Source: a bacterium | GTDB lineage: Bacteria; Myxococcota_A; Bradymonadia; UBA7976; UBA1532 | Direction of reading: 5' to 3' | DNA length: 62,168 nucleotides | Assembly (NCBI GenBank): GCA_030426945.1 | Contig: JAUHXL010000001.1 | Coordinates: 1-62,168 of the forward strand | In this document: piece by piece, positions 33,885 to 50,910 of the stretch | Numbering within the stretch: the stretch's first letter is position 1 | How the letters are laid out: every line of letters starts with the position of its first letter | Position numbers and translations under genes: made by a program | Notes under the pieces: model-generated | Database searches by the model: none | Seen by the model: only the letters and a program-made list of their open reading frames with translations | What the model was told of the DNA's origin: nothing

Positions 33885-33904
33885 CGTCGCCTCCTGCCCC
33901 TGAC

Positions 33905-34888
<984 letters not shown>

Positions 34889-34924
34889 TGGGGCGACTCC
34901 GAAAGGGGTGGCGCGTGCGGGCCG

Positions 34925-34954
34925 ATTCTCGGACGCCCGCCGGCGCCCTGTCAA
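34925..34954 (-). promoter_or_regulatory. sigma70-type promoter candidate for the activator-GGDEF-TPR operon
   Basis: The minus strand reads TTGACA-N18-GAGAAT, about 30-35 nt upstream of the GTG start. Confidence 0.4.
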
Positions 34955-35087
34955 ATCTCCGTCGGTCTCGCAATCGGGGCGGCCGCGGACTATCGTCCGG
35001 TGGAACCGGCGGGGCCCCGTTGCGGACGTCGACGCCCGCGCTGCCCTGCCCTGCCCACCCGGCGCCACCGCGGGCGGAGAACCTCCC

Positions 35088-35873
<786 letters not shown>

Positions 35874-36999: not shown

Positions 37000-38907
37000 T
37001 CAGAGGGCGAAGGGCATGTTGATGCGCATCGCGTCCCCGCGGAACTGCGGGAACCGGAAGGCACGGACCTTCCCTTCGACGCAGCGACCGACCGGAGTGC
37101 CCTTGAACTTGGACGTGGTCACGTCGGCCGAGCTGACGCGGCCGCTGCCCGCGATGACCATGGCGACCATCACCGTGCCGCTCGTGCTGCCGTCCTTGCA
37201 GGACTGGATCGATCCCGCGTTGGTCTTCACCACGCGCAGGATCTGCTGCTTCGACAAGCTGTCCGGCAGCATCGGATCGGCCGCCGGCGCCGCGGGACGG
37301 GCCGCCGGCGCCGCGGCGCGCTTGGCCCCACCACCCTTCGGGCCATCGAGCGCCCCGAGCAGGTCGTCCACCTCGTCGGTGTCCTTCTTGGCCGAGCGCG
37401 CAGGCGCGCGCCGGGCCGGCGGCGGCGTGGGCGCGCGCCGCGCGGGGGCCGGGGCCGCGGCGGGCGGCGGCGCGTCCTCCGGGTTCGAGCGCGCGGCGCG
37501 CGCCGGGGACGGACTGCGGCGGGTGCGTCGCTTGGCGGCCCGCCGCGCCGCGCGATCACCGCCCTTGGCCTCGTCGCCCTTGGCCTCGTCGTCCTTGGCC
37601 TCGTCGTCCTTGGCCTCGTCGCCCTTGGCCTCGTCGCCCTTGGCCTCGTCGCCCTTGGCTTCGTCGCCCTTGGCCTCGTCGCCCTTGGCCTCGTCCCCCT
37701 TGGCCTCGTCGCCCTTGGCCTCGTCGCCCTTGGCCTCGTCGCCCTTGGCCTGATCCCCCGCCGCCGGCTTGGCCGCCGCCCCACCGACGTTGACCGTCGC
37801 GGGCGCCGCGGCCGGCTGGCCCGCCGCCGGCTGCGCCGCGATCGGCTGCTCCCCCTTCTCACCCTTGACGAGGAAGAGCGTCAGGCCCACCGCTCCGCCG
37901 ACGAGCAGCAAGCCGCCCATCACCATCGCAGCGACCTTGCCGGTGCTCGAGCGCCGCTTGTTGACCAGGGCCGGCATCGCGCCCGGCCCCACCGCCGCGG
38001 GCGCGGCCGGCGCGAAGGCCGGGCTGGCGCCGAACGCGTCCTCCGCCGCGGACGGCGCCGAGGGCCCCACCAGCGCCGAGATGTCGATCAGGCCCGACCC
38101 CTCGCTGCCGCCGGTGCTGCGCACCTGCGGCCCCGGCTCGGCCTCGTCGGCGAGGCTGTCGAGGCTGAACAGCACCGAGTTCTCGTTGCGCTGACCACGC
38201 AGCGAGGACTGCTGCACCCGGGGGCTGTGGAAGTCCTCGTCCTGACCGCCGAACAGGCTCTCGGAGCTGCCGCTCGCGGCGGCCGCGCCGGGCGCGTTGT
38301 TCGACATCATCAGATCGTCGTCGTCGCGGCCGTCGTCCACCGCGGCGAAGAGCGACGCGCCCTGCGACGCCCCGGGACCCTCGTGGTGGTGATCGTCGTC
38401 GTCGTCGAGCGCGCCGAACCCGGCCGCCGGCGCCGCCGCCGCCGCCGCAGGGGCCGCGGCCCGAGGCGCGACCGCCGCGGGTGCCGGCGCGGGCTCGGGC
38501 TCGGGCTCGGGCAGCAAGCTGCTGAACTCCGGCACCGCGGCCAGCCGCATCCAGTCGGCCATGCCCTCGGACCAGATGAAGCTGTCGCCGTTGACCTCAC
38601 CCGCGTCGAACGCCTGCCGCACCTGGGCGCGGGTGAGCGGACCCACCTGCTCCCGGTTGATGACCACGTGCCAGATCGCGTCGGACGGTGGCGCCTCCAC
38701 CGAGGCCTGCGGATCGTACCCGCTGGTCACGCGGGTCGACTCGTCAGGCGCGCTCGCTTCGGCCGAGGCCTCCGCCGCGTCGGGCTCCCCACCTCGGACC
38801 ACGATCACGTGCGCGCAACGCTTGCAGCGGATCTTGAAGACCTTGTTGCGGACCTTGTCGTCGTTGATCTGGTACTTCGCGCTGCAGTTGTCGCAGACGA
38901 TCCTCAT
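37000..38907 (-). CDS. GltJ/AgmX-like protein: N-terminal zinc ribbon, GYF domain, TM helix, (KGDEA)n linker, AgmX/PglI (TonB-C-like) C-terminal domain
   Basis: The start is the ATG at 38907. The zinc ribbon is MRIVCDNCSAKYQI...IRCKRCAHVIVV. The GYF-type region is WHVVINREQVGPLTRAQVRQAFDAGEVNGDSFIWSEGMADWMRL. The TM helix is VAAMVMGGLLLVGGAVGLTLFLV. The C-terminus is VKTNAGSIQSCKD...GTPVGRCVEGKVRAFRFPQF. Confidence 0.8.
   Translation of the reverse strand: MRIVCDNCSAKYQINDDKVRNKVFKIRCKRCAHVIVVRGGEPDAAEASAEASAPDESTRVTSGYDPQASVEAPPSDAIWHVVINREQVGPLTRAQVRQAFDAGEVNGDSFIWSEGMADWMRLAAVPEFSSLLPEPEPEPAPAPAAVAPRAAAPAAAAAAPAAGFGALDDDDDHHHEGPGASQGASLFAAVDDGRDDDDLMMSNNAPGAAAASGSSESLFGGQDEDFHSPRVQQSSLRGQRNENSVLFSLDSLADEAEPGPQVRSTGGSEGSGLIDISALVGPSAPSAAEDAFGASPAFAPAAPAAVGPGAMPALVNKRRSSTGKVAAMVMGGLLLVGGAVGLTLFLVKGEKGEQPIAAQPAAGQPAAAPATVNVGGAAAKPAAGDQAKGDEAKGDEAKGDEAKGDEAKGDEAKGDEAKGDEAKGDEAKGDEAKDDEAKDDEAKGDEAKGGDRAARRAAKRRTRRSPSPARAARSNPEDAPPPAAAPAPARRAPTPPPARRAPARSAKKDTDEVDDLLGALDGPKGGGAKRAAAPAARPAAPAADPMLPDSLSKQQILRVVKTNAGSIQSCKDGSTSGTVMVAMVIAGSGRVSSADVTTSKFKGTPVGRCVEGKVRAFRFPQFRGDAMRINMPFAL
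37561..37755 (-). repeat. In-frame 15-bp tandem repeat, about 13 copies, encoding (KGDEA)n
   Basis: The unit GCCCTTGGCCTCGTC is repeated head to tail with 0-1 mismatch per copy. The last copy is degenerate. Confidence 0.9.
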
Positions 38908-38965
38908 CAAGCGCTCTCCCAGCAGGCAGGGGAGCACCGCGCTCTTCGGCGCGAGTGCCCGCGCG

Positions 38966-38995
38966 ATTATAGGAGCGGCTTTCGCGCGCCCGCAA
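38966..38995 (-). promoter_or_regulatory. sigma70-type promoter candidate for the GltJ-like gene
   Basis: The minus strand reads TTGCGG-N18-TATAAT. A perfect -10 hexamer is rare in this GC-rich DNA. It lies about 55 nt upstream of the ATG, inside a 371-nt gap. Confidence 0.4.
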
Positions 38996-39278
38996 GAACC
39001 CCCTCGGTTCACGCCACGCGCCACCGAGGCCAGCCGCGGCAGGAGTCCCTGCCCGCGACGCCCTCACTACGCGCGGCGGGCGACCGAGTGTCCGCGCTCG
39101 AGCGAGAAACCCGACCGGACCCCCGGAAGAGGCCAACGCGGCGATGAGCAAGAGGAGTCGGCCGCCCGATTGCCCTGCGCCCACGGGCGCAGCATCGACG
39201 ACGGGCCCGAGGTCGACGATCCATCCCAGCCGATCAGCAGCGCCTCGCCGCCGCGGGTGGAACGGGCCGCTCGGAGGG

Positions 39279-39533
39279 TCAGCGCAGCGTCGCGTCCTTG
39301 GCGGTCGCCTTGAGCTTGGGCAGGAAGTCCTTCTTCAGCTTCAGCAGCCGCTCGAACTTCACCTTCTGCCGAGCGTCGGTGTAGAGCACCTGCGGCTTCT
39401 TGTACTGACCGTCGATGAGGAGGTCGTCGAAGTTGTAGAACTTCGTCTTCGAGTCGCCATCGTCCTGCGCGACCGCGGTGACGGGCGCGCCCATCAGCAG
39501 TCCACCCACCAGCAGCAGCTTGATCCACTTCAT
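39279..39533 (-). CDS. small secreted protein in the GltF/NfsF position
   Basis: The ATG at 39533 has a GGAGGAGG Shine-Dalgarno. The signal peptide is MKWIKLLLVGGLLMGAPVTAVA. 84 aa, located between the GltE-like and GltJ/G-like genes. Confidence 0.7.
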   Translation of the reverse strand: MKWIKLLLVGGLLMGAPVTAVAQDDGDSKTKFYNFDDLLIDGQYKKPQVLYTDARQKVKFERLLKLKKDFLPKLKATAKDATLR

Positions 39534-39656
39534 CTGAGACCTCCTCCGCGTCGCGTCCGGCACGCGCCGAGTATGATGGCCGGCGCCCGGCCTGTCGAGG
39601 CGTGTACCCGGGCCGCGCCCGCGTCATCGCCGGGTTCGTCGGACCCCCGGTGGGTG

Positions 39657-41042
39657 TCAGCTGGCGCCGTCACCCTCGGCGGGCTTCTCGGCACCCTCGG
39701 CGGGCTTCTCGGCACCCTCGGCGGGCTTCTCGGCACCCTCGCCGGGCTTCTCGGCACCCTCGCCGGGCGCCGCAGCCCCCGCGGCGTCGGCGGCCGGCTC
39801 CCCGGCACCCTCGGCGCCCTCGGCCGGCGGCGCCGCACCCTCGCCCGGCGCCTCGTCGGCGCCATCACCCTCGCCACCGCCGGTCTCGCCACCGCCCGCC
39901 TCACCGCCGTCACCCGGGGGCGGCGCGGTCGCCGCCTGCTCGAGGAACTTCACGGTCGCGCGCAGCTGGTGGTCCGCGGGCAGCTTCTCGAGATCGATGT
40001 ACCGCTTGTAGAAGGCGACGGCCTTCTTGGGCTGGCCCATCTGCTCCTCGTAGATCTTGCCCACCCGGATGAGCACCTCGGCGTGATCACCGCCGACGTC
40101 GAGGCTCTCTTCGTACAGCTTGGCCGCCCCCTCGTAGTCACCCGTTCCGTAGAGCGCGTTGGCCTCGCCCACCATCGCCTGGTAGTGCTTCGGGAAGCGC
40201 GCCCGCACCGCGCGGAACTGCTCGAGGGCCGCCGGATAGTCGAGGTAGTCGAGGTAGATCGACGCGAGGTTCAGGCGCGCGTCGTCCATGGTCGGGTCGA
40301 AGTTGATCGCCTTCTCGAAGGACAGCACCGCCGACGGCACCTGCTCCATCTTGTAGAACGTCAGCCCGAGGTTGTTGTGCGCGCGGGCGTTCTTCTCCTC
40401 GAAGCCGATGGCCTTGTTGAACATCAGCAGCGCCAGGGGCAGCTTGTCCTGCGCCAGGTAGATGAGGCCCAGGTTGATGATCGCCGGCACGTTCTTCGGC
40501 TGCACGGCCAGCACCTCCTTGACGTAGCGGAGCGACGTCTTGAGGTCCTTCTTGGCCAGATAGGCCGCAGCCAGGTTGTTGCGCGCCTGGAGGTCGTCGG
40601 GCTTGTCCCGCAGCACCGACTCGAACTCGGTGATGGCCTGCTCGGCCTCGCCCGACAGCAGCAGCGCGCGGCCGAGCGCGAGCGTCACGCCCTTGTCAGT
40701 GACGCTCTGCTCGATGAGCTTGCGATAGGCCGCGGCGGCCTCCTTGTAGCGCCCGAGGCGCTCGTAGCTGTACGCCAGGTTCAGCCACGCCACCGTGTAC
40801 TTCGGGTGGGCGGCCGTCGCCTTCTCGAAGGCCTCGGCGGCCTCGACGTAGGCCGGCGGCGTCTTCTGGAGGGACTCGACCCCACTCGTGAAGGCGGTCA
40901 CCGCGGACTCGGGGATACCGTCGACCTTCTTCTCGGCCTTGGGCGGCGGCTTCTTGTCGATGGGATCCTTCTTGGGGGGCGTGCCCCCGCAGCCCACGAG
41001 GACCGCGAGACCCATCCAGACGAACAGACGGTCGAGCCGCAT
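39657..41042 (-). CDS. TPR-repeat lipoprotein, GltE/AglT/NfsE-like
   Basis: The lipobox is LVGC. About 8 TPR units follow. The C-terminal tail is (AEGAEKP)n. The start (ATG 41042 or GTG 41045) abuts the upstream stop. Confidence 0.8.
   Translation of the reverse strand: MRLDRLFVWMGLAVLVGCGGTPPKKDPIDKKPPPKAEKKVDGIPESAVTAFTSGVESLQKTPPAYVEAAEAFEKATAAHPKYTVAWLNLAYSYERLGRYKEAAAAYRKLIEQSVTDKGVTLALGRALLLSGEAEQAITEFESVLRDKPDDLQARNNLAAAYLAKKDLKTSLRYVKEVLAVQPKNVPAIINLGLIYLAQDKLPLALLMFNKAIGFEEKNARAHNNLGLTFYKMEQVPSAVLSFEKAINFDPTMDDARLNLASIYLDYLDYPAALEQFRAVRARFPKHYQAMVGEANALYGTGDYEGAAKLYEESLDVGGDHAEVLIRVGKIYEEQMGQPKKAVAFYKRYIDLEKLPADHQLRATVKFLEQAATAPPPGDGGEAGGGETGGGEGDGADEAPGEGAAPPAEGAEGAGEPAADAAGAAAPGEGAEKPGEGAEKPAEGAEKPAEGAEKPAEGDGAS
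39671..39768 (-). repeat. In-frame 21-bp tandem repeat, about 4.5 copies
   Basis: The unit CACCCTCGGCGGGCTTCTCGG repeats at 39671, 39692, 39713 and 39734. It encodes the AEGAEKP repeats. Confidence 0.85.
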
Positions 41043-44000
41043 CACTTCGACTCCTTCTTCTCGGTCGGCGCGGCCTTGTCGCCGCCCTTCGCGGGCTCGG
41101 CGCCCTTCGCGGGCTCGGCGCCCTTCGCGGGCTCGGCGCCCTTCACCGGCTGCGCACCCTCGGCGGGCGCTGCGCCCTCACCGGGCTTGCCCCCCGCGGC
41201 CGGGGCCGCCTCGGGCGCCGGGGCCATCATCTGCTCCAGCTTGCCGGCCGGATCGGCGATGAAGGTCGTCGAGAAGGTCGCCGGCACCGGGTGGTCGCTG
41301 TCGTTGACGCTGTCCTCGAGCACCGGGAAGGCCTCGGGGCTCAGCTTCACCAGCAGCGCCGCGGACTTGCGCGACCACTCGTTGTACACGTGGTTCTCGT
41401 GGGCCAGCTTCAGCGCCCGCCCGACGGCCTCGATGGCCTTCTCCTGCAGCGGCGCGGCCCGGTCGTCGAGCTCCGCCCGGTACACGAACTGCTCGTCCTC
41501 GCTCAGTTCGGCGGGGATCGGCAGGTCGAACAGGCTCTTCGCGAACAGGTAGTAGCTCTCGCCGATACGGTACAGGGCGCCCGCGTTGACCGAGTGCGAC
41601 TTGTACTCGAGCACGTCGAACATGACCTTCGTGGCCTTCTCGAGCAGCTCCGCCTTCTTGACCAGGGTGCGGCGCAGCACGTGGTCGGGGAAGCTGACCT
41701 TCACCTCCTCGAAGTCCTGGTAGATGTACTCGCCCTGGAGGAAGCGGGCCATGCCGGCGGCCCGACGCACCTCAGGCTTGGCCTTCGCCTCGTCCGACAG
41801 GCGCTTGTACGCCCGCAGCGCCGAGTCCAGCTCCTTGCTGGCGTCGCGCCGCGCATGCTTCGCGCCCTCCTGCTGGTAGTTGCGCGCGGTGCGCAGGTAG
41901 ACGTCGATCGTCGTCTCGGGGCGCGTCTTGCCGAACTTCTTCAGGTAGTCGGCGTAGGTGCCGCGCGCGTCCTTCCAGTTGCCCTGCTTCTCCTGGAAGT
42001 CGGCCACCCGCAGAAAGATGTCCGGCGTGTCCTTCCCGTCGGGGAACTTCTTCACGTACGTCTGGAAGATGGCCTCGGCCTTGGCGTACTGCTCGAGCGC
42101 CGCCCGGATGGAGCCGGCGTTGTACAACGCGTCGGCCATCTGCGGCACGTCGGGGAAGGTCGCCATCTTCTCGAAGTAGTCCGCGGCCCGCTCGAAGTCG
42201 GTCTGGCTCTCGTAGAGCGCCCCGAGCACGAAGTGCGCCTCGGTGGCCTGCGAGCTCTTCGGGTAGCGCTTGATCAGGCTCTCGTACAGGTCGATCGCCT
42301 GCTCGGTCTTCTCGGCCTGCTCGGTGATCGCCGCCGCGTTGAACAGCGCGATGGGCGCCTTGTCGTGCTTGGGGAACTCCTTGACGAAGCGCAGCATCTC
42401 TTCGGCCGCCTTCGCCTTCTCGCCCTTCTTCGACAGCTCGGTCGCGTACTCGTTGATCGAGATGGCGATGACCTCGAGCAGCTGCTTCTTGCTCAGCACC
42501 TTGTAGTTCTTGGTGTTGAGCATGTACCGCCCCCAGCGCTCCATCTGATCCCAGCGACGCAGGCGGTAGTTGGCGTCGAACAGGGTGGCCGCCGCGAAGC
42601 CCGCGAAGCGGTGCTTCGGGTGGTGCTCCATGATGACCTCGAGGCGCTTGACGCCCTCGGCGTAGTGCCCCTTCTTGATGAAGATCTCGGCCGCGCGGAA
42701 CGCGACCGCCGGCACCTCGTTGTCGTCCGGGTACAGGTCGAGGTAGTCCGAGCAGGCCTTCAGGAAGGCGTTCTCCGTCGCGTGCAGGTCCTGCTTCTCG
42801 ACGGGCTTGAAGTCCTTGTCGTCTTCCTTCTTGTCGACGAACTGGACGTCGGCTTCCTTGGCCTTGCCCCGCTTGCCCTTCTTGACCTCCTGCTCGGGCC
42901 GCTCGATCAGCCCGGCGTCGGCCATCTTCTGCTCCTTGCAGAGGATGACCGCGTAGGCCGACTCCTTCGAGTACTTACCCTTCGGATCCCGGTCGACGAC
43001 CCCGCGGTAGTGCTTGGCGGCCTCGTCCCACTGCTTGGTCTGGAAGAAGTAGATCTCGGCGAGGAAGAACTGCTTCTCGTAGGCGTCCTTCGCCTCGTTG
43101 AACCACTCGAGGTACTTCTCGTAGTACTTCGCGGCCTTGGCGTAGAACCGGTCGGCGCGCTCCTGATCCTTGAGCTTCTCGACCTCTTGCGCCTTGGTGT
43201 GGAACTGCCCGATCAGCCAGTCGACCTCCTCCTCGCGATACTGCTTCGCGCGGATCATCGGGGTCTCGATGTCCTTGTTCGCGACGTGCCAGCTGCCCTT
43301 CGGGTCGAAGTAGTCCAGGAAGCGACCGATGACCTCCTCGGTCTTCTCGATGTCCTCCTGCTTCTTCCAGGCCTTCGTCACGTAGTCCGCGTACTCGGGG
43401 ATCTTCTCGCCCTGCTTGTTGGCGGCGATCAGGTACTCGTAGACCTCGATCTCGAGGTCCGTCTTGTCCTGCTTGTTGTAGATGCGGGCGATCTTCTCGA
43501 GCTGCTCGGTGGCGAGCTGATCGCTGCCCACCTTGCGGAAGTAGTCGCGGGCCTTCTTCCACCCGTCGTCGACCTCGGCGTAGGCCAGGGCCAGCGCCGA
43601 GTAGGCCTGGTTGGTGAAGTAGACCTTGCGCTTGTCCTCACCCTTCGAGAGCTCGACGACCTTCTGGAAGGAGCCGATCGAGTCGTCGTACTCCTTCAGG
43701 TTGTAGTAGACGTAGCCCAGCTTGTAGAGCGCGTAGGGATACTGGCTGCTGGACTCGTCCTTGAGCACCTCGAGGTAGTTCGTCTTGGCGGCGAAGAGCA
43801 GGTCGTTGTCGAAGTAGTACTCGGCCACCGCCAGGAAGGCGCGGGTCTTGTACTTGCTCTTCGGGTACTCCTTCGTCAGGCGCAGCATGTAGCTGGCGCC
43901 TTCCTTCTTCTTGCCCGCCGTGATCAGGCCGCGGCCGAGGTAGAACATGACCTCGTCGATGCGCGCGTAGTTCGGGAACTCCTTGAGCAGCTTCTTGTAC

Positions 44001-44434
44001 TCGACGAGCGCCTTGCCATAGTCGGCGTTCGGCTCGTCGGGCTTCTTCTTCAGCGTGCCGTTCAGGTACGCCTCGTACTGCTTGTCGTAGTCCTTGCGCT
44101 GCAGGAAGTACCGGTACTTGGCCTCGTCCCACTCCTTCTCCGCGATGCGGAACAGGAGGTCGGCCTTCTTCTTGTACAGCGGGTTCTTCTGCAGAATGCT
44201 GCGCATCTGCTCGATCTGGCGCTGGCGCACCTTGGAGAGCTTGGCCTCCTTCTCGGCGATCACCGTGTCGTCGGGATCGATGGGCGGCAGCTCGTCCCCG
44301 GCCTCGGGCTTGAAGACGCCCTGAGCCGCTTTCTCGTCCGTGGCCAGCTCGTCCTTGCCTCCGCCCGTCTTCTGGGCGAAGGCCGGCGGCGCCAGCAGCG
44401 CGCCGATCATGATCAGGGCGGGCAGAATCTTCAT
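41042..44434 (-). CDS. large periplasmic TPR protein, GltD/AgmU/NfsD-like
   Basis: The signal peptide is MKILPALIMIGALLAPPAFA. About 1130 aa of Lys/Tyr/Glu-rich TPR-like repeats follow (..YALYKLGYVYYNLKEYDDSIGSFQKV..). The C-terminal tail is (AEPAKG)n. An alternative GTG start lies at 44443. Confidence 0.8.
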   Translation of the reverse strand: MKILPALIMIGALLAPPAFAQKTGGGKDELATDEKAAQGVFKPEAGDELPPIDPDDTVIAEKEAKLSKVRQRQIEQMRSILQKNPLYKKKADLLFRIAEKEWDEAKYRYFLQRKDYDKQYEAYLNGTLKKKPDEPNADYGKALVEYKKLLKEFPNYARIDEVMFYLGRGLITAGKKKEGASYMLRLTKEYPKSKYKTRAFLAVAEYYFDNDLLFAAKTNYLEVLKDESSSQYPYALYKLGYVYYNLKEYDDSIGSFQKVVELSKGEDKRKVYFTNQAYSALALAYAEVDDGWKKARDYFRKVGSDQLATEQLEKIARIYNKQDKTDLEIEVYEYLIAANKQGEKIPEYADYVTKAWKKQEDIEKTEEVIGRFLDYFDPKGSWHVANKDIETPMIRAKQYREEEVDWLIGQFHTKAQEVEKLKDQERADRFYAKAAKYYEKYLEWFNEAKDAYEKQFFLAEIYFFQTKQWDEAAKHYRGVVDRDPKGKYSKESAYAVILCKEQKMADAGLIERPEQEVKKGKRGKAKEADVQFVDKKEDDKDFKPVEKQDLHATENAFLKACSDYLDLYPDDNEVPAVAFRAAEIFIKKGHYAEGVKRLEVIMEHHPKHRFAGFAAATLFDANYRLRRWDQMERWGRYMLNTKNYKVLSKKQLLEVIAISINEYATELSKKGEKAKAAEEMLRFVKEFPKHDKAPIALFNAAAITEQAEKTEQAIDLYESLIKRYPKSSQATEAHFVLGALYESQTDFERAADYFEKMATFPDVPQMADALYNAGSIRAALEQYAKAEAIFQTYVKKFPDGKDTPDIFLRVADFQEKQGNWKDARGTYADYLKKFGKTRPETTIDVYLRTARNYQQEGAKHARRDASKELDSALRAYKRLSDEAKAKPEVRRAAGMARFLQGEYIYQDFEEVKVSFPDHVLRRTLVKKAELLEKATKVMFDVLEYKSHSVNAGALYRIGESYYLFAKSLFDLPIPAELSEDEQFVYRAELDDRAAPLQEKAIEAVGRALKLAHENHVYNEWSRKSAALLVKLSPEAFPVLEDSVNDSDHPVPATFSTTFIADPAGKLEQMMAPAPEAAPAAGGKPGEGAAPAEGAQPVKGAEPAKGAEPAKGAEPAKGGDKAAPTEKKESK
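41083..41154 (-). repeat. In-frame 18-bp tandem repeat, about 4 copies
   Basis: The unit CGCCCTTCGCGGGCTCGG repeats at 41083, 41101 and 41119, with a degenerate fourth copy. It encodes (AEPAKG)n. Confidence 0.85.
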
Positions 44435-46344
44435 TACTTGCACACTTCCTGGAGATCGCTGCGGTAGGCGTTGATCTCGTCGGCCCAGAACTCGCCCTCG
44501 AAGGGCCAGGTGACGTACTTGTCGCCGACGAACACCAGCGCCGCGGCCTGGGACTCGACCGCCTGCGCCTCCTCGCTGTCGCCGCGATACTCTTCCTCGA
44601 TCTGCTTCTCGAGCTCGGTGGCCGCGGCCTCGTCGATCTCGATGCGAATCTCGGTGACCTGCTCCTCGAGCTCGGTCAGCTCGTCGTCGAGGCCCTGCAG
44701 CAGCTGGTTGATCTTGATGCCGAGGGCCAGCGTCCCGTCTTGCTGACGGCTCTGCACCGTCTCGAGCAGCCGCCGGGTCAGGTCGTCACCGAAGCGCGCC
44801 CTGCCCTTCTCGATGGCCGCCACCTCGCGCCGCAGCTGGGTGACCGAGGTGTACAGGTCGTAGAACTCGGCGTTCGAGATGACCGCCATGCGGAGCAGGT
44901 GCGGCAGCTCGATGCCCTTGCGGCTCTGCTGCAGCACGAACGCCCGGTAGAGCGCCTCCGGCGACGCGTACTCGGCCATGAAGTTCTGCAGGGGCGCCTT
45001 GAGCGAGAGGTAGTTCTTCTCGATGCGCTGCAGGGCGTCGTGGGCGAAGTCGAAGTGACAGTTGTTCATGAACACCGTCGCCTCGAGCAGGTGGGTGTCC
45101 GGGAGGAAGTACTCCTCCCAGTCGGGCCCATCGAGGGTGTGGAAGATGCCCATGCCCCGCTTGACGTCACCCTTCAGGAAGTACGACCAGCCGGACTCGT
45201 GCAGCGCGTTGACGTAGCTCGTCGAGTCGCTCGGCACCTTGCGGTAGTAGAAGATCGCGACGTCGAAGAGGCCCACGGAGTAGGCGATCCGCGCCAGGGC
45301 CAGGTAGGCCAGGTGCGCGACGCGGGGCTCGTCATTGGCCTCGCCGGCGGCGACCGCGCGCTCGAAGAACTGGCTGGCGCCGATCAGGTTGCGGCCGAAG
45401 TCTTCGGAGTCCTGATCCTCACCGGCGTTCTCGACGGTGACCAGGCCCAGCAGGTACTGCGCGTCCGCGTAGTCGTCACCGGCGTCCGACACCTCGCCGA
45501 GGTACTTCTGCGCCTCGTCGTAGCGGTTGTAGTCGAAGAAGAACTTGCCCAGGAAGTAGTTGTAGCTGTCCTGGAACGCCTGCGACTGGCCGCCCACGAA
45601 GTAGTTGGTCAGCGCCTCGAGCGTGACCGGGTTGTAGGCCACGCGCTTGGAGCTGCGGCGCAGGCCCTCGAAGGCCGGGGCGAACACGTCGGACTCGCCG
45701 CCGAGGTTCACCAGCTCGTGGTACATCTCCGCCGCGTTGCCGTACAGGCCCAGGCAGTACAAGGCGTCCGCGAGGCCGAGCTTGCCCGAGGCGGTGCTGG
45801 GCTTGTTCGGCGCGGCGCTCTGCAGGAACTGATCGAAGAGCTTGGCCGCGGTGTGGCAGTCGCGATCATCGAGGGCTTCGCGCGCGCCTGCGAGCGCGCC
45901 GGCCACCCGCCGCTGCTCCTCGGCGGCCATCTTGGCCCGCTCGGCGTCCGCGGCGCGCTTGGCGGCCTCGCGGATGCGGGCCTCCTCTTCGATGCGCGCC
46001 TTCTCGGTCTCCTCCTGATCGCGGAGCCGCTCGAGATCGTCCTCGGGCGCGGGCTCCGGCGCGGGCTCCGGCGCGGGCGCAGGCGCCCCACCGCCGCCGG
46101 CGGCCATCATCGCCTCGATGACGTCCTTCGGCACGCCGGCGTCCTCGAGCTTCTTCAGCTCGGCCACGGTCAGGTTGAAGGTCGAGCCGGTGGACTGGAT
46201 CGTCTGCACGATCACCTGGGCGGGCAGCCCCGACTTGTGCATCTGGATCACGTTGTCGGTCGTGATCGCCCACGCCGGCGTCGCCAGCGCCGCGACGAGC
46301 GCGACGGCCACGAACACCCGACGGAGGGATTTGCGAAACGTCAT
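44434..46344 (-). CDS. secreted helical-repeat/coiled-coil protein in the GltC/NfsC position
   Basis: The ATG at 46344 has a GAGGTG Shine-Dalgarno that overlaps the upstream stop. A signal peptide (VAVALVAALATPAWA) and a PAPEPAPEP linker are followed by a charged coiled coil and TPR-like repeats. The stop overlaps the start of the GltD-like gene. Confidence 0.72.
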   Translation of the reverse strand: MTFRKSLRRVFVAVALVAALATPAWAITTDNVIQMHKSGLPAQVIVQTIQSTGSTFNLTVAELKKLEDAGVPKDVIEAMMAAGGGGAPAPAPEPAPEPAPEDDLERLRDQEETEKARIEEEARIREAAKRAADAERAKMAAEEQRRVAGALAGAREALDDRDCHTAAKLFDQFLQSAAPNKPSTASGKLGLADALYCLGLYGNAAEMYHELVNLGGESDVFAPAFEGLRRSSKRVAYNPVTLEALTNYFVGGQSQAFQDSYNYFLGKFFFDYNRYDEAQKYLGEVSDAGDDYADAQYLLGLVTVENAGEDQDSEDFGRNLIGASQFFERAVAAGEANDEPRVAHLAYLALARIAYSVGLFDVAIFYYRKVPSDSTSYVNALHESGWSYFLKGDVKRGMGIFHTLDGPDWEEYFLPDTHLLEATVFMNNCHFDFAHDALQRIEKNYLSLKAPLQNFMAEYASPEALYRAFVLQQSRKGIELPHLLRMAVISNAEFYDLYTSVTQLRREVAAIEKGRARFGDDLTRRLLETVQSRQQDGTLALGIKINQLLQGLDDELTELEEQVTEIRIEIDEAAATELEKQIEEEYRGDSEEAQAVESQAAALVFVGDKYVTWPFEGEFWADEINAYRSDLQEVCK

Positions 46345-46354
46345 CACGACCACC

Positions 46355-47125
46355 TCAGATGATGATGCCGAGTCCCAGCGACAGCTCCACCGGGATGGAG
46401 ACGCCGCCCTGGAACTTCTGGAAGAAGAACTGGCGGTACTCGGTGCGAATGTTGAAGTTGTCGTTGATGAACCAGCGGAAGCCGAGGACGGTATTCCCGC
46501 TGGGCTTGACCACCTCGTTGCCGTCCGGGTTCGAGGCCGGGAACTCGGTGTTGTGGAAGATGCCGAAGCCGAGACCGACGTAGGTCTCGAAGTGGGTCAG
46601 CTTCAGGCCCAGCAGGCTGATCTTGCCGTAGATGGGGGCCCAGAGCAGGTCGATGTTGTAGTAGAAGTTGATCTTCTCCTGGATGTCGGCCCGCTTGAGG
46701 CCGATGCCCTCGCCCTCGAGGAAGCCGGCGAGATCGCTCTCGACCTGGATGGCGTACGAGAAGGACGCCTCGACCATGAAGGCCTCGGAGAAGTGGTACC
46801 CGACGCGCCCGCCGATCGGGTAGTACACGACGAAGTCGTCGTTGGGCACGATCGACAGCGTCGGCACCGACAGCTCGATGCGACCGTCCTTCTCGTACAG
46901 CCGCTTCTGGACGACCTTCACCTCGCGGCGCTTGCCCCAGAAGAGATCGAGATCCTCCTCGAGCGCTCTCTCGGCCTCGGTGGCCGTGTCGTCGCTCACG
47001 TCACCCGTGGGCGCGGCTGCGCCCTCGTCGTCGGCCGGCGCACCCTCGGGAGCTTCCTGCGCAAAGGCCGGCCCGGACAGGGCCAGCACCGCCAGGGCGG
47101 CAACCAGCAACAGCACCTTGTTCAT
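46355..47125 (-). CDS. outer-membrane beta-barrel protein, GltA/GltB/NfsA/B-like
   Basis: The signal peptide is MNKVLLLVAALAVLALSGPAFA. Alternating amphipathic beta strands follow. The C-terminus ..VELSLGLGIII ends in hydrophobic residues, as is typical of OMPs. Confidence 0.75.
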   Translation of the reverse strand: MNKVLLLVAALAVLALSGPAFAQEAPEGAPADDEGAAAPTGDVSDDTATEAERALEEDLDLFWGKRREVKVVQKRLYEKDGRIELSVPTLSIVPNDDFVVYYPIGGRVGYHFSEAFMVEASFSYAIQVESDLAGFLEGEGIGLKRADIQEKINFYYNIDLLWAPIYGKISLLGLKLTHFETYVGLGFGIFHNTEFPASNPDGNEVVKPSGNTVLGFRWFINDNFNIRTEYRQFFFQKFQGGVSIPVELSLGLGIII

Positions 47126-47145
47126 CGAGGTCTCGCTCCCTTTGC

Positions 47146-48375
47146 TCACTGCTTGTTGAACCACAGCCGGGTGTCGTCGAAGTCGCGACCGCTGCTGCCA
47201 CGCGACAGCGCCTGCGACCGCGACCGGCCGCCCAGAGTCACCGTCAGCTCGGTCGACAGGAAGTAGTTGTCGGGCGGGAAGGCTGCCCGGTTCATCGTGG
47301 TCTCGGTCCGCAGGCGCCAGGTCCCGACGATGCGGTTGCGCACGATCGACTGCAGGTTCTGGCTCTCGGTGAACTCGGCGGGCGCCTCGATGAAGAGGTA
47401 CTCGCCCCCGGTCCGGCAGGCCAGGTTCACCAGGTCGGGGTTCCGCCCGCGGGTGAAGCCGGGGCTACCGTCGGTGGGGATCGGCGGCTGCAACTGCATG
47501 ACGATGACCGGCACCGGGCCGCCCGCGCGGCTGGCGTAGCGCTCGGTGACGGCCTGCAGGTTGGTGGCCGAGGTGTCGCCGCTCTCGACGCCGTCGGTGA
47601 AGAGGATCACCACCGGGTTGAGGTCGCGGTTGCCCTCGCTGTCGATGATGCGGGTCAGCGACTGGTCGAGGGCGTCGGCGAGGGGCGTCAGGCCGCCCTC
47701 GTCGAACTGCAGCTCCCCGATGCCGTCGGCGATGTTCTCGCGGTTCGGCTGGGGCGTCGAGAACTGCTCGGTGATGTTGACGAACGAGCCCTTGAAGGAG
47801 ACCAGGGAGACCAGGTACTCGCGGGGCAGGTTGTTCACCAGCTGCTGGAAGAAGGCGATGCGCTGGTCCTCGCGGTCCGTCGCGTTCGCCGTGTTGATCA
47901 TCTGCGTGAAGGGATCCTCGCCGATGAGGCTGCCCGAGTGATCCATCAGCAGCACGACCAGGCGCCGATCCTGCTGGCGCTCCTCGCCGCCCGAGTACTC
48001 GAACTGCAGGCTCAGCGTGCGCAGATCCACGCCCTGCTGCATGCCGCTGTTCTCGCCGAGGGCGATGCCGACCTCGGGCACGTCGAGCGTGCTGTCGGCG
48101 GTGCGGGCGAAGGCGAAGTCTTCGTGGGACAGGAGCTCCGAGACGGGCTGGAACTCGCGCTGCAGCCGATCATCGGGGAGAAGCGCCGTGGTGCCGTCGA
48201 GCATCATGACCGAGATGTCGATCATCTGCAGATCATCGGACACCTCGCAGGCGCCCGGCACCAACAGCCGGGTGAAGGTCGGCCGCGTGGGGTCGAGCCC
48301 GACGGTCGAGTCGCACCCCGCCAGGCCACCCGCGGCGACCGCCGCGGCGGCCAGAATCCGGTTCATTCTGCGCAT
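47146..48375 (-). CDS. VWA-domain lipoprotein with an intact MIDAS motif
   Basis: The ATG at 48375 has a GAGGAAAGGA Shine-Dalgarno. The lipobox is LAGC. VVLLMDHSGSL gives the DxSxS motif, followed by ..VSLVSFKG.. and ..VVILFTDGVES. Confidence 0.8.
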   Translation of the reverse strand: MRRMNRILAAAAVAAGGLAGCDSTVGLDPTRPTFTRLLVPGACEVSDDLQMIDISVMMLDGTTALLPDDRLQREFQPVSELLSHEDFAFARTADSTLDVPEVGIALGENSGMQQGVDLRTLSLQFEYSGGEERQQDRRLVVLLMDHSGSLIGEDPFTQMINTANATDREDQRIAFFQQLVNNLPREYLVSLVSFKGSFVNITEQFSTPQPNRENIADGIGELQFDEGGLTPLADALDQSLTRIIDSEGNRDLNPVVILFTDGVESGDTSATNLQAVTERYASRAGGPVPVIVMQLQPPIPTDGSPGFTRGRNPDLVNLACRTGGEYLFIEAPAEFTESQNLQSIVRNRIVGTWRLRTETTMNRAAFPPDNYFLSTELTVTLGGRSRSQALSRGSSGRDFDDTRLWFNKQ

Positions 48376-48729: not shown

Positions 48730-50817
48730 ATGATGCACGCCGCGGCCCTTCCGCGCACCTTTCGCTGGTTCGCCTTCGCCGCCCTCGGCGGCCTCGTGAT
48801 GGCCGGCTGTGACGACGAGGGCCTCGACGTCACGCGCACCGGCAGCATCGAGATCACACCGCCCCAGTACACCTTCCCCAAGATCTCGCCGGGCAGCCGC
48901 GGCGACCGCGAGGTGTTCATCGAGAACACCGGCTCGGGCGCCGTGCTCATCCGCAAGATCCGCCTCGACCTGGGTGACCGCGGCGACTTCCAGCTGTTCT
49001 GGAAGACCTCGTCCGAGGGCGAGGAGTACCAAGGGCTGACCCGCGCCGGGGAGGACCGCTTCGACTATCCGGTGCGCATCGATCCGGACGAGCGGCTGTA
49101 CCTGGTCCTGGAGTACGCGCCCGAAGACACCTCCTTCGAGCAGGGGCGCGTCCTGCTCGACACGAACCTGCCCGAGGGCGAGGTCGCGATCCCGGTGGTG
49201 GCGTCGGAGGCCGGCGCCGAGATCAACGTCGCGCCGCGCACCGTCGACTTCGATCGCGTGCCGGCCCGGGACGAGGCGACCCGCGACGTCGTGGTCACGA
49301 ACGTCGGCCAGGCGACGCTGAACGTCACGCAGATCCTCCTCAACGGCTCCCAGGACTTCACGCCGCTGGTCAACGGGAAGGATCCCCGTCGCGGCCAGCG
49401 GGAGGTGCTGCTCGACGCGGACGGCGACGGCATCGCTGGCCTGGCGCCGAACCAGCAGTTCACGATCTCGGTGCGCTACGCGCCCCAGATCGAGGGCCCG
49501 GACACCGGCGAGCTGAGCATCTTCAGCGACGATCCCAACCAGCCCGAGGTGAAGGTGGAGCTGCGCGCGAACGGCGCCACGCCCTGCCTGGACGTGAACC
49601 CGCCCGCGCTGGAGTTCCCCACGAGCCTCGTCAACCGCATCGACTCGCGGCCGCTCTCGATCGAGAGCTGCGGGGGCCAGCAGCTGCAGATCGACAACAT
49701 CCGCCTGAGCGACGACAGCGATCCCGCCTTCGCGCTCGACGAGGAGAGCCTGCCGGAGACGCCGGCGCTGCTGCCCGCCTACCTGCCGGGCGACATCCCG
49801 CCGAGCCGATCGATCCGCGTGTCGTTCACGCCGCGGGAGCAGCGCATCCACAACGGCACGCTGATCATCGAGAGCTCGGATCCCGTGACGCCGAGCCGCG
49901 AGGTCAGCTTGCTGGGCCGCGGCGTGCTGAACGCCTGCCCCCAGGCCCGCGCGGTGCAGGACGCCTTCGACGTGCTGCCCCTCGACGTGGTGGTGCTCGA
50001 CGGCGCGCCGTCGATCGACCAGGACGGCCCGGGCAACCGGCCCGTCGAGTACGAGTGGGTCATCACCAGCCGCCCCGAGGGCTCGGTCTCGCAGCCGGTC
50101 GAGGGCTTCCTCGACGCCGCGAACCCGGCCGCCGGCGGCGTCGACGACGTGCTCGAGACGCCCATCGCGCTGTTCTGGGTCGATCTGGCCGGCACCTACA
50201 CCGCCGAGCTGCGCGTGAAGGACAACCTGGGCCTGGACTCGGTGGCCTGCGACAACGCCGCGGTGGTGACCATCATCGCCAAGCCCGACGAGGCCATCCA
50301 CGTTCAGCTGGTGTGGGAGACGCCGGGAGACGCGGATCTGACCGACGCCGAGGGCGCCGACCTGGATCTACACCTGCTGCACCCGAGCGCGCCCAACTGG
50401 TTCGCCGCGCCCTACGACTGCCACTTCCTGAACCCCGTGCCGGACTGGGGGCAGCCCGACAACCCGGCGGACGATCCCTCGCTCGACATCGACGACATCG
50501 CGGGGGGCGGGCCGGAGAACATCAACCTGGACAACCCGGAGAACACCGGCGTGCTGGGCGCCCCGTACGCGGTGGGCGTGCACTACTACAGCAGCCGCGG
50601 CCGCATCAGCGGGCAGGAGTTCGGCCCCAGCTTCGCGCGGGTGCGCATCTTCCTGAAGGGCGAGCTGAGCTACGACTCGACCGAGGATCGGGGCGAGGAC
50701 GGGGCGCGCGAGCTCGAGGCCGAAGATCACTTCTGGGACGTCGCGCGCATCCACTGGCCCGAGATGCGCGTCGAAGCACGGGATCAGTACTTCACGCAGC
50801 GCCCCGACGCCGAGTGA
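48730..50817 (+). CDS. lipoprotein P1: three Ig-like (choice-of-anchor-D/ASH-type) repeats, a PKD-like domain, and an Asp-rich C-terminal module
   Basis: The lipobox is VMAGC. The motif xxVDFGxVxxxxxxxxxVxVTNxGxxxLxI recurs, for example VDFDRVPARDEATRDVVVTNVGQATLNV. The PKD-like segment is LDGAPSIDQDGPGNRPVEYEWVITSRPEGS. The C-terminal motif is DLDLHL...YDCHF..PDWG...DDPSLDIDDIAGGGPENINL. Confidence 0.8.
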   Translation: MMHAAALPRTFRWFAFAALGGLVMAGCDDEGLDVTRTGSIEITPPQYTFPKISPGSRGDREVFIENTGSGAVLIRKIRLDLGDRGDFQLFWKTSSEGEEYQGLTRAGEDRFDYPVRIDPDERLYLVLEYAPEDTSFEQGRVLLDTNLPEGEVAIPVVASEAGAEINVAPRTVDFDRVPARDEATRDVVVTNVGQATLNVTQILLNGSQDFTPLVNGKDPRRGQREVLLDADGDGIAGLAPNQQFTISVRYAPQIEGPDTGELSIFSDDPNQPEVKVELRANGATPCLDVNPPALEFPTSLVNRIDSRPLSIESCGGQQLQIDNIRLSDDSDPAFALDEESLPETPALLPAYLPGDIPPSRSIRVSFTPREQRIHNGTLIIESSDPVTPSREVSLLGRGVLNACPQARAVQDAFDVLPLDVVVLDGAPSIDQDGPGNRPVEYEWVITSRPEGSVSQPVEGFLDAANPAAGGVDDVLETPIALFWVDLAGTYTAELRVKDNLGLDSVACDNAAVVTIIAKPDEAIHVQLVWETPGDADLTDAEGADLDLHLLHPSAPNWFAAPYDCHFLNPVPDWGQPDNPADDPSLDIDDIAGGGPENINLDNPENTGVLGAPYAVGVHYYSSRGRISGQEFGPSFARVRIFLKGELSYDSTEDRGEDGARELEAEDHFWDVARIHWPEMRVEARDQYFTQRPDAE

Positions 50818-50910
50818 CGACCCGCGCGCCCGGCTGAGGTCAGCCGACGACCCCGGCCGCGCGGCGGCGCGGGGTCGTTTCGTTTCCGGAGACCGTTCGT
50901 GGAGAACCGC

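Follow-up and report, generated by a model that had tools for sequence, protein, structure and literature searches.

In M. xanthus, the outer-membrane module (G2, gltK-B-A-C) and the periplasmic/inner-membrane module (G1, gltD-J) of the Agl-Glt system are encoded in separate clusters, and the AglRQS motor genes are unlinked to both (PMC3169522). In the model of this machine, GltD forms a pillar touched by the C-terminal domains of GltG and GltJ as well as by GltE, GltF and GltC (PMC11761067), and the VWA lipoprotein adhesin CglB is held by GltABHK (PMC9946355; PMC11761067). GltG is essential, binds AglR and wraps GltD, and the linker between the zinc ribbon and the GYF domain of GltJ bears the MglA-binding site. 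In the Nfs system, most G1/G2 genes have a close homologue (GltA-H), the exceptions being GltI, GltJ and GltK, and the function of the paralogues G4 and G5 is not known. In Bdellovibrio, an "expanded core" cluster (Bd0828-0838) is reported to include aglRQS. The published ancestral core comprises GltC, GltD, GltE and GltG together with a linked AglRQS, with GltA/B, GltF and especially GltJ as later additions.

The window analyzed here is an entire 62168-bp contig of an uncultured, flagellated member of Myxococcota, the nearest genome being MAG HK-STAS-MYXO-8. All seven co-directional genes that an earlier note had picked out proved real; they occupy minus-strand positions 37000-48375 (transcribed from 48375 to 37000; coordinates from ATG starts), with a third-codon-position GC of 0.90-0.97. 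Six of their products carry signal peptides or lipoboxes and one a transmembrane helix. The earlier description of the genes as mostly coupled by overlaps was overstated, as only the C/D (TAATG) and D/E (TGATG) junctions overlap, by 1 nt each. The spacing is 20 nt between the VWA and barrel genes, 10 nt between barrel and C, 121 nt between E and F, and ~370 nt between F and J. As this last gap, which precedes the gltJ-like gene, contains a TATAAT box (spotted by eye), a single operon for all seven genes is doubtful. Thus, of the proposed fusion into one operon with a single barrel, the contiguous modules and the single barrel hold, but the one operon does not hold firmly.

The β-barrel protein (46355..47125, minus strand; 256 aa) is of the GltA/GltB outer-membrane type; it has a signal peptide, and its N-terminal periplasmic extension is acidic. 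It passes the TIGR04565 OMP_myx_plus cut-off (98 bits against 60) and matches the barrel of a reference cluster, L083 (phmmer 1.5e-18), found in a 45%-GC MAG (DYEF01000022.1). This reference cluster itself passes the NCBI equivalog cut-offs for GltC (573 bits vs 450), CglF (103 vs 90) and CglE/GltH (99 vs 70). The GltC-like periplasmic TPR protein (44434..46344, minus strand; 636 aa, signal peptide) aligns through residues 85-638 with positions 53-619 of the 622-position profile NF033756 (3.7e-54). Its 184.5 bits fall short of the 450-bit equivalog cut-off, with the runner-up family at just 25 bits, and phmmer against GltC of L083 gives 2.7e-42. At E<=1e-10, the GltC-like family counts 710 representatives. 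The GltF/CglF-like small secreted protein (39279..39533, minus strand; 84 aa) matches CglF (NF033764; 5.5e-10, 39 bits vs a cut-off of 90) and no other family, and its counterpart in L083 at 1.6e-9 (phmmer). The longest open reading frame in the GltF gap, of 186 aa at 39067-39627, is not a gene, having a GC3 of just 0.58; the true small gene uses a different frame with a GC3 of 0.90.

The GltD/AgmU-like periplasmic TPR pillar (41042..44434, minus strand; 1130 aa, signal peptide) starts within the gltC-like stop and matches generic TPR families alone in Pfam and NCBIfam. As the same is true for the D protein of L083, NCBIfam appears to have no GltD model. The two D proteins align end to end (residues 34-1106 against 25-1102; phmmer 2.4e-97, second run 8.8e-89). 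The GltE/AglT-like TPR lipoprotein (39657..41042, minus strand; 461 aa), which starts within the gltD-like stop, has the lipobox LVGC and a repetitive Pro/Ala/Glu tail. Its match to GltE (NF033758; 2.8e-29, 102 bits vs a cut-off of 225) hardly exceeds those to other TPR families, for example 99.6 bits for MamA, and on its own would be non-specific. Nevertheless, the protein is collinear with GltE of L083 (residues 14-345 vs 16-339; phmmer 7.2e-25), and its gene position and predicted lipobox agree with the assignment.

The GltJ/AgmX-like bitopic inner-membrane protein (37000..38907, minus strand; 635 aa) has a cytoplasmic part with a zinc ribbon (residues 1-39) and a GYF domain (about 75-135), a transmembrane helix (about 326-347), and a periplasmic part in which a long repetitive linker (GDEAK x13) is followed by a TonB-C-like AgmX/PglI C-terminal domain. 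It matches GltJ (NF033761) at 3.7e-52 and 178 bits vs a cut-off of 450, its C-terminal domain passes NF033768 (54.8 bits vs 40), and the GltG profile reaches just 36.9 bits. The only two sequence matches in the PDB are the GYF domain (7Z3C, 7.7e-11) and zinc ribbon (7ZOK, 1e-9) of M. xanthus GltJ, and conservation of the N-terminus extends to 20 orthologues. The earlier gene-by-gene identities thus proved right at each position, on the profile, PDB and L083 evidence. Because the window scores all lie below the curated cut-offs of the M. xanthus-derived models for GltC, GltE, CglF and GltJ, the proteins rank as distant relatives, not orthologues, by the NCBI standard. Neither GltG, GltH, GltI and GltK nor a MotA/TolQ/ExbB-type protein was found in the window with Pfam and NCBIfam profiles on the called genes, with tblastn, or with phmmer on six-frame open reading frames, confirming that GltH/I/K and an AglRQS/TolQR-type motor are missing there, as proposed.

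The head gene (47146..48375, minus strand), whose coordinates agree exactly with the database gene call P0211, encodes a 409-aa lipoprotein (lipobox LAGC; three cysteines) with a VWA domain (Pfam 2.8e-9) bearing a full MIDAS motif. Its 61 homologs all fall within its own clade; among 54 sequences, D145, S147, S149 and D261 never vary and T230 hardly does, and the DxSxS motif is present in 64 of the 68 upstream VWA-like open reading frames recovered at related loci. In the AlphaFold2 model (pLDDT 91.3), the VWA domain sits between N- and C-terminal β-strand segments, which may be read as its insertion into a β-sandwich. The best PDB folds are ITIH1, TRAP, integrin I-domains, anthrax-toxin receptors and the LapA vWFA domain. 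This lipoprotein is likely a surface adhesin and a functional counterpart of CglB, a role that the earlier note had overlooked.

Four divergently transcribed lipoprotein genes, which also escaped that note, extend the conserved unit beyond seven genes, to 48730-57913. All four proteins carry choice-of-anchor D domains and are encoded on the plus strand. Lipoprotein 1 (48730..50817; 695 aa, lipobox MAGC) has ASH-type Ig-like domains (NF012200 2.8e-23; Pfam Cep192_D4, HYDIN-Ig and ASH), and is encoded as divergent neighbour at all 13 close-clade loci whose flanks are complete, with related genes at 18 of 26 distant-clade loci. Its paralogue, lipoprotein 2 (50911..52953; 680 aa, lipobox VAGC), matches NF012200 at 6.5e-19, with further support from Pfam and synteny. 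Lipoprotein 3 (53152..56253; 1033 aa, lipobox VVGC) combines four choice-of-anchor D Ig-like domains (NF012200 2.9e-50) with a C-terminal MIDAS/VWA adhesin domain (DNSGS), which matches the Bdellovibrio MIDAS-family adhesins (NF052240, 2.1e-11). In addition, residues 727-962 match CglD (NF033765, 1.9e-6), and tblastn aligns the C-terminus (55345-56130) with the L083 head MIDAS lipoprotein in three collinear segments, at best 2.2e-12. Lipoprotein 4 (56321..57913; 530 aa, lipobox LAGC) matches NF012200 at 6.8e-23 as well as Pfam ASH and Cep192_D4.

A set of 80 related loci, retained out of 576 matches and each from a different species-level genome, bore out the synteny. Most of them are headed by the same layout of a MIDAS lipoprotein, one or two barrels and C-D-E-F; hence the layout is neither rare nor an oddity, and its recurrence across these genomes is beyond chance. 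A single barrel is present in 57 of 74 loci and two in the other 17, with exactly one at every close-clade locus. No TolQR/AglRQS-type motor lies on the contig or <=10 kb from any related locus, and no GltG/H/I/K <=10 kb at any close-clade locus. Most distant-clade loci have no nearby G/J gene, so essential parts must be encoded in trans in this cluster family.

With homology, domain architectures and conserved synteny all observed, and with a linked motor absent, we consider it probable, at about 0.6, that the products of the locus are the non-motor components of a trans-envelope "transducer" of the Glt/Nfs family, likely for motor-driven coupling of surface adhesins. From these parts we infer an assembly order, drawn by analogy with the machine described for M. 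xanthus, as well as an energy source and a function. The GltJ-like protein would sit in the inner membrane with its zinc ribbon and GYF domain facing the cytoplasm as a regulatory docking module, and its disordered periplasmic linker would present the TonB-C-like domain for docking on the GltD-like pillar. This pillar would be bound by the GltE- and GltF-like proteins, and the GltF- and GltC-like proteins may bridge it to the periplasmic face of the single barrel, which in turn would hold or expose the MIDAS lipoprotein on the cell surface. The machine would be energized by a TolQR/AglRQS-type proton channel whose genes lie in another part of the genome, as for M. xanthus Glt and Nfs; given the lack of a motor gene on the contig or near related loci, the motor would have to act in trans. 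The most likely function is to couple surface adhesins to substratum or prey in gliding or adhesion, and the four neighbouring lipoproteins may be further adhesins or cargo.

The same parts could also serve a job other than motility, such as Nfs-like moving or organizing of surface polymer or proteins, for example the Ig-domain lipoproteins, or prey contact. Nfs, the closest Glt paralogue, is a single locus that serves to assemble the spore coat and relies on AglRQS as a motor in trans; motility is unimpaired in G4 and G5 mutants; the organism has a flagellar gene cluster; and Bdellovibrio MIDAS-family adhesins work in prey invasion. The locus also lacks GltG, H, I and K, each essential for M. 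xanthus gliding, but Bdellovibrio glides without GltH, I, J and K, and cultured Bradymonadales glide, with or without flagella (PMC7188933). Moreover, adhesin-type MIDAS lipoproteins in cis suggest attachment over polymer handling, and the gliding machine is so far the only one known to have a GltJ-type zinc ribbon and GYF module. We thus regard a non-motility role as rather unlikely.

It is less probable still that the seven genes form a self-sufficient, minimal or ancestral machine needing only a generic motor besides. The contiguous modules, the predominance of single-barrel loci and the lack of GltG/H/I/K near close-clade loci would fit this proposal of the earlier note. However, GltJ and GltF are derived components, which argues against an ancestral cluster: compared to the published core, the later parts A/B, F and J are present, yet G and a linked motor are absent. 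Furthermore, the conserved unit exceeds seven genes, essential parts are in trans in the family, and no more than 62 kb of the genome is in view.

A flagellum-associated periplasmic scaffold is very improbable. The cluster immediately precedes a ~30-kb flagellar cluster that runs in the same direction; its adjacency to a sigma-54 activator, a GGDEF gene, a TPR gene and flgB is kept in L001, L003, L007, L010, L011, L015 and L021; TPR proteins can form flagellar collars, and weak FlcA matches were found. Nevertheless, flagellar genes are absent from a relative, L081, in which the Glt-like locus is retained in full together with the L3 gene; there, L3 is followed by dapF, rpoZ and fabF, which in the window flank the flagellar block. 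Distant-clade loci and L083 do not adjoin flagellar genes either, and the specific matches are to Glt proteins. The flagellar cluster, absent in at least one relative, is therefore probably unrelated to the Glt-like locus. Finally, although the D and E proteins match YbgF, BamD, PilW and MamA-type TPR models, a chance resemblance of unrelated TPR and Tol-Pal accessory genes (YbgF/CpoB-like) is refuted by the specific profile matches of C, F and J, the PDB matches to GltJ, the gene order kept in 80 loci, and the collinear alignments of the barrel, C, D, E, F and the J C-terminal domain with L083.

Taking the Glt/Nfs-family transducer as the preferred reading, comparison with M. xanthus Agl-Glt revealed common homologues of GltA/B, C, D, E, F and J of similar size (256, 636, 1130, 461, 84 and 635 aa vs 256/275, 673, 1191, 471, 89 and 674 aa), a common GltJ architecture of zinc ribbon, GYF domain, transmembrane helix and TonB-C-like domain, a VWA/MIDAS lipoprotein as candidate adhesin, and an unlinked motor. 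They differ in that the window has one barrel instead of the GltA/GltB pair, contiguous rather than split modules, as the earlier note had stated, no GltG, H, I or K, the adhesin gene in cis at the head of the cluster, a zinc-ribbon-to-GYF linker of about 35 aa compared to 95 aa, and choice-of-anchor D lipoproteins as additional conserved neighbours. Nfs (nfsA-H), compared here by its published description, shares the single locus, the order barrel(s)-C-D-E-F-(G) and a motor encoded elsewhere. As that description gives homologues of GltA-H, it implies two barrels and GltG and GltH homologues, and no VWA head gene is reported, whereas the window combines a single barrel with a GltJ-type anchor and a VWA head gene.

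L083 shows the same order of MIDAS lipoprotein, one barrel, C, D, E and F, with collinear proteins. Its head lipoprotein belongs to the Bdellovibrio MIDAS-adhesin family, like the C-terminal domain of lipoprotein 3. However, this head lipoprotein is Cys-rich (39 Cys), and the cluster ends in an FHA-type GltG and CglE/GltH rather than GltJ. Unlike Bd0828-0838, none of the 86 loci examined contains aglRQS. The G4-type cluster adjoining mglBA (the M. xanthus MXAN_1922 region; Anaeromyxobacter oryzae, L085) is a C-D-E-F-G-type string of the same superfamily but has a GltG-type anchor, no TIGR04565 barrel and no VWA head gene, and L085 is farther than L083 from the window proteins (C, 2.6e-11 vs 2.7e-42; D, 6.6e-75 vs 2.4e-97). 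Tol-Pal/TonB systems are similar in having an anchored inner-membrane protein whose long periplasmic linker and TonB-C-like domain reach outer-membrane partners, with a TolQR/ExbBD-type channel presumed to energize it, and the window TPR proteins resemble YbgF/CpoB. By contrast, the window has no TolQ/R/A/B or Pal genes, its TPR scaffold is far larger, and it has a dedicated barrel and adhesin lipoproteins. Altogether, a cluster related to Glt and Nfs lies side by side with likely surface adhesins, as a variant of a known machine that is neither ancestral nor self-contained.

The seven genes run on the minus strand from 48375 to 37000. Called by third-position GC content (GC3) in a window of ~70% GC, each has a GC3 of 0.90-0.97. 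Read from ATG starts, their products measure 409, 256, 636, 1130, 461, 84 and 635 aa and are in order of transcription a VWA lipoprotein, an outer-membrane (OM) barrel, and GltC-, GltD-, GltE-, GltF- and GltJ-like proteins; gene 1 is identical to the database gene call P0211. The 186-aa ORF that is the longest in the gap between genes 5 and 7 was considered as the small secreted protein and found to be spurious, with a GC3 of only 0.58, and the true small gene lies in another frame at 39279-39533. Overlaps join only C to D (TAATG) and D to E (TGATG), and the remaining spacers measure 20, 10, 121 and ~370 nt in transcription order; the earlier note was thus right about seven co-directional genes, but “mostly coupled by overlaps” overstated the case. 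The gltJ-like gene may have its own promoter. A TATAAT box ahead of it was noticed by eye only, and the promoter scan of the cluster gave a single weak promoter-like site, ahead of gltF. Terminator-like sites in the cluster were no commoner than chance, and sigma-54 promoter matches were rarer than the chance expectation, with none upstream of the Glt genes. In addition, in-frame tandem DNA repeats occur in three low-complexity segments: 15 bp x12.8 (GDEAK, 37560-37751) in the periplasmic region of the GltJ-like protein, 21 bp x4.7 (39671-39768) in the tail of the GltE-like protein and 18 bp x5.6 (41079-41178) in the tail of the GltD-like protein.

In place of the M. xanthus proteins, comparisons were made with the NCBIfam equivalog models, with the solved GltJ domains and with a related cluster termed L083. 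Homology searches, including an exhaustive representative search and a cluster look-up of ten mid-range matches, returned no named Myxococcus proteins, and their only cultured match was the C protein of the G4-type cluster of Anaeromyxobacter oryzae. Gene 2 scores 98 bits with TIGR04565, the model of myxobacterial OM barrels, whose cut-off of 60 it thereby passes, and is present in one copy only; M. xanthus requires the GltA-GltB barrel pair (PMC11761067). Gene 3 matches GltC (NF033756) over its full length at 3.7e-54, the next family reaching 25 bits. As its 184 bits fall below the 450-bit equivalog cut-off, its product is by sequence a GltC family member rather than an orthologue by the NCBI standard. 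Gene 4 matches generic TPR models only in NCBIfam and Pfam, and since the D protein of L083 does likewise, NCBIfam appears to have no GltD model. The GltE match of gene 5 (NF033758, 102 bits against a cut-off of 225) barely exceeds its matches to unrelated TPR families and is weak by itself; the protein also has a lipobox and occupies the GltE position. Gene 6 has CglF/GltF as its sole family match (NF033764, 5.5e-10, 39 bits against a cut-off of 90). Gene 7 matches the GltJ model at 3.7e-52 with 178 bits, below the curated cut-off, and its C-terminal AgmX/PglI (TonB-C-like) domain passes NF033768 (54.8 bits against 40). Every equivalog score lies below its curated cut-off, so the window proteins are best classed, on these scores, as distant family members and not as orthologues by the NCBI standard.

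The N-terminus of the GltJ-like protein has two PDB matches in all, the GYF domain 7Z3C (7.7e-11) and the zinc ribbon 7ZOK (1e-9), both NMR structures of M. xanthus GltJ domains (PMC11135422). Both domains are conserved, but the linker between zinc ribbon and GYF, which in M. xanthus GltJ is the MglA-binding site (PMC11135422), is ~60 aa shorter in the window protein. This short linker (38788-38907, and the orthologous loci L001-L021) carries a DExTRV motif conserved in most of the close clade of relatives.

The reference cluster L083 (DYEF01000022.1) lies on the contig of a 45%-GC MAG and was found through the gene 4 homologue P0078, its D protein. Its scores pass the NCBI cut-offs for GltC (573 against 450), CglF (103 against 90) and CglE/GltH (99 against 70), with near-misses for GltG (546 against 650) and GltE (170 against 225). 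Pairwise phmmer comparison showed that every window component is collinear with its positional counterpart in L083: the barrel (1.5e-18), C (2.7e-42), D (2.4e-97, end to end over residues 34-1106 against 25-1102), E (7.2e-25) and F (1.6e-9), in addition to the C-terminus of J against that of the L083 G protein (5.7e-10). Gene 4 shares 26% identity with P0078 at 97% coverage (8.8e-89). The comparison was calibrated with the G4-type cluster adjoining mglBA in A. oryzae (L085), whose proteins are in every case farther from the window proteins than those of L083. The collinear matches therefore speak against the possibility that the 1130-aa and 461-aa TPR proteins are unrelated to GltD and GltE, and favour the earlier note in taking the first as a relative of GltD and the second as a probable relative of GltE. 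L085 itself (AP025591.1, 8123-21744) is a Glt paralogue in physical linkage with the polarity GTPase: mglB and mglA immediately precede its G4-type C-D-E-F-G string, after which comes a 1555-aa FG-GAP/β-propeller protein.

In a scan covering one genome per species, GltD-like relatives turned out to be encoded in 576 stretches, and the best 80 were kept. The closest of these is in the MAG “Myxococcales bacterium HK-STAS-MYXO-8”, at 95% identity, and the others come from MAGs labelled Myxococcales, Myxococcota, Nannocystaceae, Bradymonadia or Lujinxingia, some bearing vaguer labels (Deltaproteobacteria, Proteobacteria, “bacterium”) and a few being evidently mislabelled. They form a close clade of 23 loci (GltD identity 54-95%) and a distant clade of 57 (29-38%). 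Close-clade loci that are long enough have the order of at least three divergent Ig-lipoproteins, VWA, one barrel, C, D, E, F, J and usually ribosomal protein L3. In the distant clade the conserved genes are those for a Cys-rich MIDAS lipoprotein (~600 aa), for one or two barrels and for C, D, E and F, and a nearby G or J gene is missing in most of its loci. Among the best 80 loci, 57 have one barrel and 17 have two; the DxSxS motif is present in 64 of the 68 upstream VWA-like ORFs recovered. Where the flanks are complete, Ig-lipoprotein neighbours accompany all 13 close-clade and 18 of 26 distant-clade loci. A related cluster is also found in a MAG labelled Lujinxingia vulgaris, of a cultured genus of Bradymonadales (L026, 4550-17000), with two barrels, C, D, E, F, a GltJ-type protein and a 543-aa head lipoprotein that has no DxSxS motif; it is a possible experimental model.

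The head protein is a lipoprotein (lipobox LAGC) with a VWA domain. All 61 homologues of P0211 fall within the close clade, under the names “VWA domain-containing protein”, “Mg-chelatase subunit ChlD” or “hypothetical protein”, none being named CglB. Across 54 homologues the MIDAS residues D145, S147, S149 and D261 are invariant and T230 is nearly so; C43 and C320 are likewise invariant, and the lipidated C21 is nearly invariant. Compared with CglB by its description, the head protein is also a VWA lipoprotein, but CglB is disulphide-dependent and Cys-rich (PMC9946355), whereas the window protein has only these three cysteines. In its AlphaFold2 model (pLDDT 91.3, pTM 0.89) the VWA domain sits between N- and C-terminal β-strand segments, which we read as an insertion into a β-sandwich. 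A PDB sequence search found no match to the protein and only the fold search was informative, giving as best matches ITIH1, a bacterial VWA protein, Plasmodium TRAP, integrin I-domains, anthrax-toxin receptors and the vWFA domain of the LapA adhesin. Altogether, the head gene has the profile of a metal-dependent adhesin and is a candidate adhesin.

Upstream and divergent, on the plus strand at 48730-57913, are four paralogous lipoproteins with choice-of-anchor D/ASH-type Ig-like domains. The third has an additional C-terminal MIDAS domain (DNSGS), which matches the Bdellovibrio MIDAS-adhesin family (2.1e-11) and CglD (1.9e-6) and is homologous to the head lipoprotein of L083. The first and second share a conserved C-terminal region of ~250 aa (…LDIDD..GGPENINL…, at 49900-50817 and 52000-52953) that has no Pfam, NCBIfam or PDB sequence match; a PDB sequence search with the C-terminal half of the first lipoprotein also returned none. 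In the literature searched, DUF1573/choice-of-anchor D proteins were not found linked with gliding. The plus-strand stretch after the four genes (57820-60223) encodes a CxxCxxCC (YkgJ-type) zinc/iron-binding protein and a 599-aa protein that has no family match.

Searches of the window, which is a whole 62-kb contig, bore out the statement of the earlier note that GltH, GltI, GltK and an AglRQS/TolQR-type motor are absent from it. No MotA/TolQ/ExbB, ExbD/TolR, FHA, Ras-like or CglE-like (GltH) protein is encoded in the contig, nor is a 4000-aa TPR protein (GltI-like), a small Cys-rich lipoprotein (GltK-like), mglAB or aglZ. The FHA-type GltG, which contacts the motor in the Glt machine, is likewise missing from the contig, in which the L083 GltG protein aligns with nothing but the GltJ-like C-terminal domain. 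GltG, H, I and K may all have their genes in another part of the genome. With motor queries validated against the PDB, TolQR/ExbBD/AglRQS-type genes were found within 10 kb of none of 86 related loci (1.66 Mb in all).

The AlphaFold-based model of the M. xanthus machine provides a frame for how these proteins might work. In that model GltD is a periplasmic pillar, on whose N-terminal part the TonB-C-like domains of GltG and GltJ dock and on whose C-terminal part GltE docks, while GltC binds beneath the GltA/B/H barrels, which together with GltK expose the VWA lipoprotein CglB (PMC11761067). Mapped on it, the window proteins would form a continuous path from the cytoplasm to the surface. The path would start at the cytoplasmic zinc ribbon and GYF domains of the GltJ-like protein, pass through its transmembrane helix and long repetitive linker, and end with the TPR scaffold, one barrel and the surface MIDAS lipoprotein. 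A TolQR/AglRQS-type channel encoded at another place in the genome would supply the energy, by analogy with M. xanthus, in which the motor cluster lies apart from the glt genes (PMC3169522) and serves Nfs too. Solely from homology and gene context, we infer with moderate confidence that gliding or adhesion is the likeliest function, because adhesin-type genes are conserved in cis and the cultured Bradymonadales glide, some being also flagellated (PMC7188933). Its main rival is an Nfs-like, non-motility role, in which the shared architecture would serve something other than movement.

A functional link with the neighbouring flagellar genes was considered and rejected, as a relative termed L081 keeps the locus in a flagellum-free setting. 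Flagella are unusual in Myxococcota. Downstream of the Glt-like genes, on the minus strand, follow a gene for ribosomal protein L3, those for a sigma-54 activator, a GGDEF protein and an 835-aa TPR protein, and then the flagellar cluster, which spans ~30 kb (5240-35326, flgB to fliA). It comprises fliA, flhG, flhF, flhA, flhB, fliR/Q/P, fliM, fliL, flgE, flgD, fliK, fliI/H/G/F/E, flgC and flgB, in addition to a 659-aa ORF matching FliO; motAB, flgFGHI and flagellin genes are absent from the contig. Just upstream of flgB (29998-35326, minus strand), the genes for the secreted 835-aa TPR protein, the GGDEF diguanylate cyclase and the sigma-54 activator, which has no obvious receiver domain, may form a flagellar regulatory module, and a sigma-54-like TGGCAC-N5-TCGC lies directly before flgB at 29875-29889. 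The stand-alone bacterial L3 gene (35946-36719, minus strand; TIGR03625, 235 bits against a cut-off of 143) lies outside any ribosomal operon, has an N-terminal extension of ~37 aa, and directly follows the gltJ-like gene in at least 12 related species. In L081 the entire Glt-like locus and L3 are kept and are followed by dapF, rpoZ and fabF, which in the window border the flagellar block, with no flagellar genes between L3 and rpoZ. Since some relatives have the flagellar cluster and at least this one lacks it, the cluster is probably separate and not part of the Glt-like system.

Four features of these loci were not found described in the literature consulted: a MIDAS lipoprotein as conserved head gene in both clades and the reference cluster, conserved choice-of-anchor D lipoprotein neighbours, a clade with a GltJ-type anchor alone and a single barrel, and GltJ-type proteins in Bradymonadia-labelled genomes. 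We tentatively propose, with a probability of about one in four, that the MIDAS/VWA first gene has long been integral to the barrel-C-D-E-F module, being shared by uncultured Myxococcota, Bradymonadia-labelled MAGs and a low-GC cluster passing Glt cut-offs, and that the window clade runs a pared-down machine, with one barrel, GltJ as sole anchor and adhesins in cis, which dispenses with GltG, H, I and K in a bacterium capable of swimming as well. If so, adhesin coupling would predate the Myxococcales-restricted CglB. The Glt machine is a model for bacterial focal adhesions, known almost entirely from one species with scattered genes. The compact loci, which occur in dozens of uncultured Myxococcota as well as in MAGs placed in the cultured genus Lujinxingia, bring together a candidate adhesin, a barrel, a periplasmic scaffold and a single membrane anchor, and offer structure prediction and reconstitution a natural, minimal set of parts. 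They also suggest the choice-of-anchor D and MIDAS lipoproteins as new candidate partners, and take the known distribution of the GltJ-type anchor, with its zinc ribbon and GYF domain, past the classical Myxococcales. The window is moreover a case of Glt-like and flagellar genes adjoining in one genome.

Single-locus Glt relatives are already known, namely nfsA-H and the “expanded core” of Bdellovibrio, and the basic picture of how Glt-type machines work is unchanged. The published ancestral core consists of C, D, E and G with linked AglRQS; F and A/B are reported to have joined it later, and J to have been added in the Myxococcales. The earlier suggestion of an ancestral variant is at odds with this scheme: since the later parts F, A/B and J are present and the core G and a linked motor are missing, the window cluster is more likely a derived combination of Glt components than an ancestral one.
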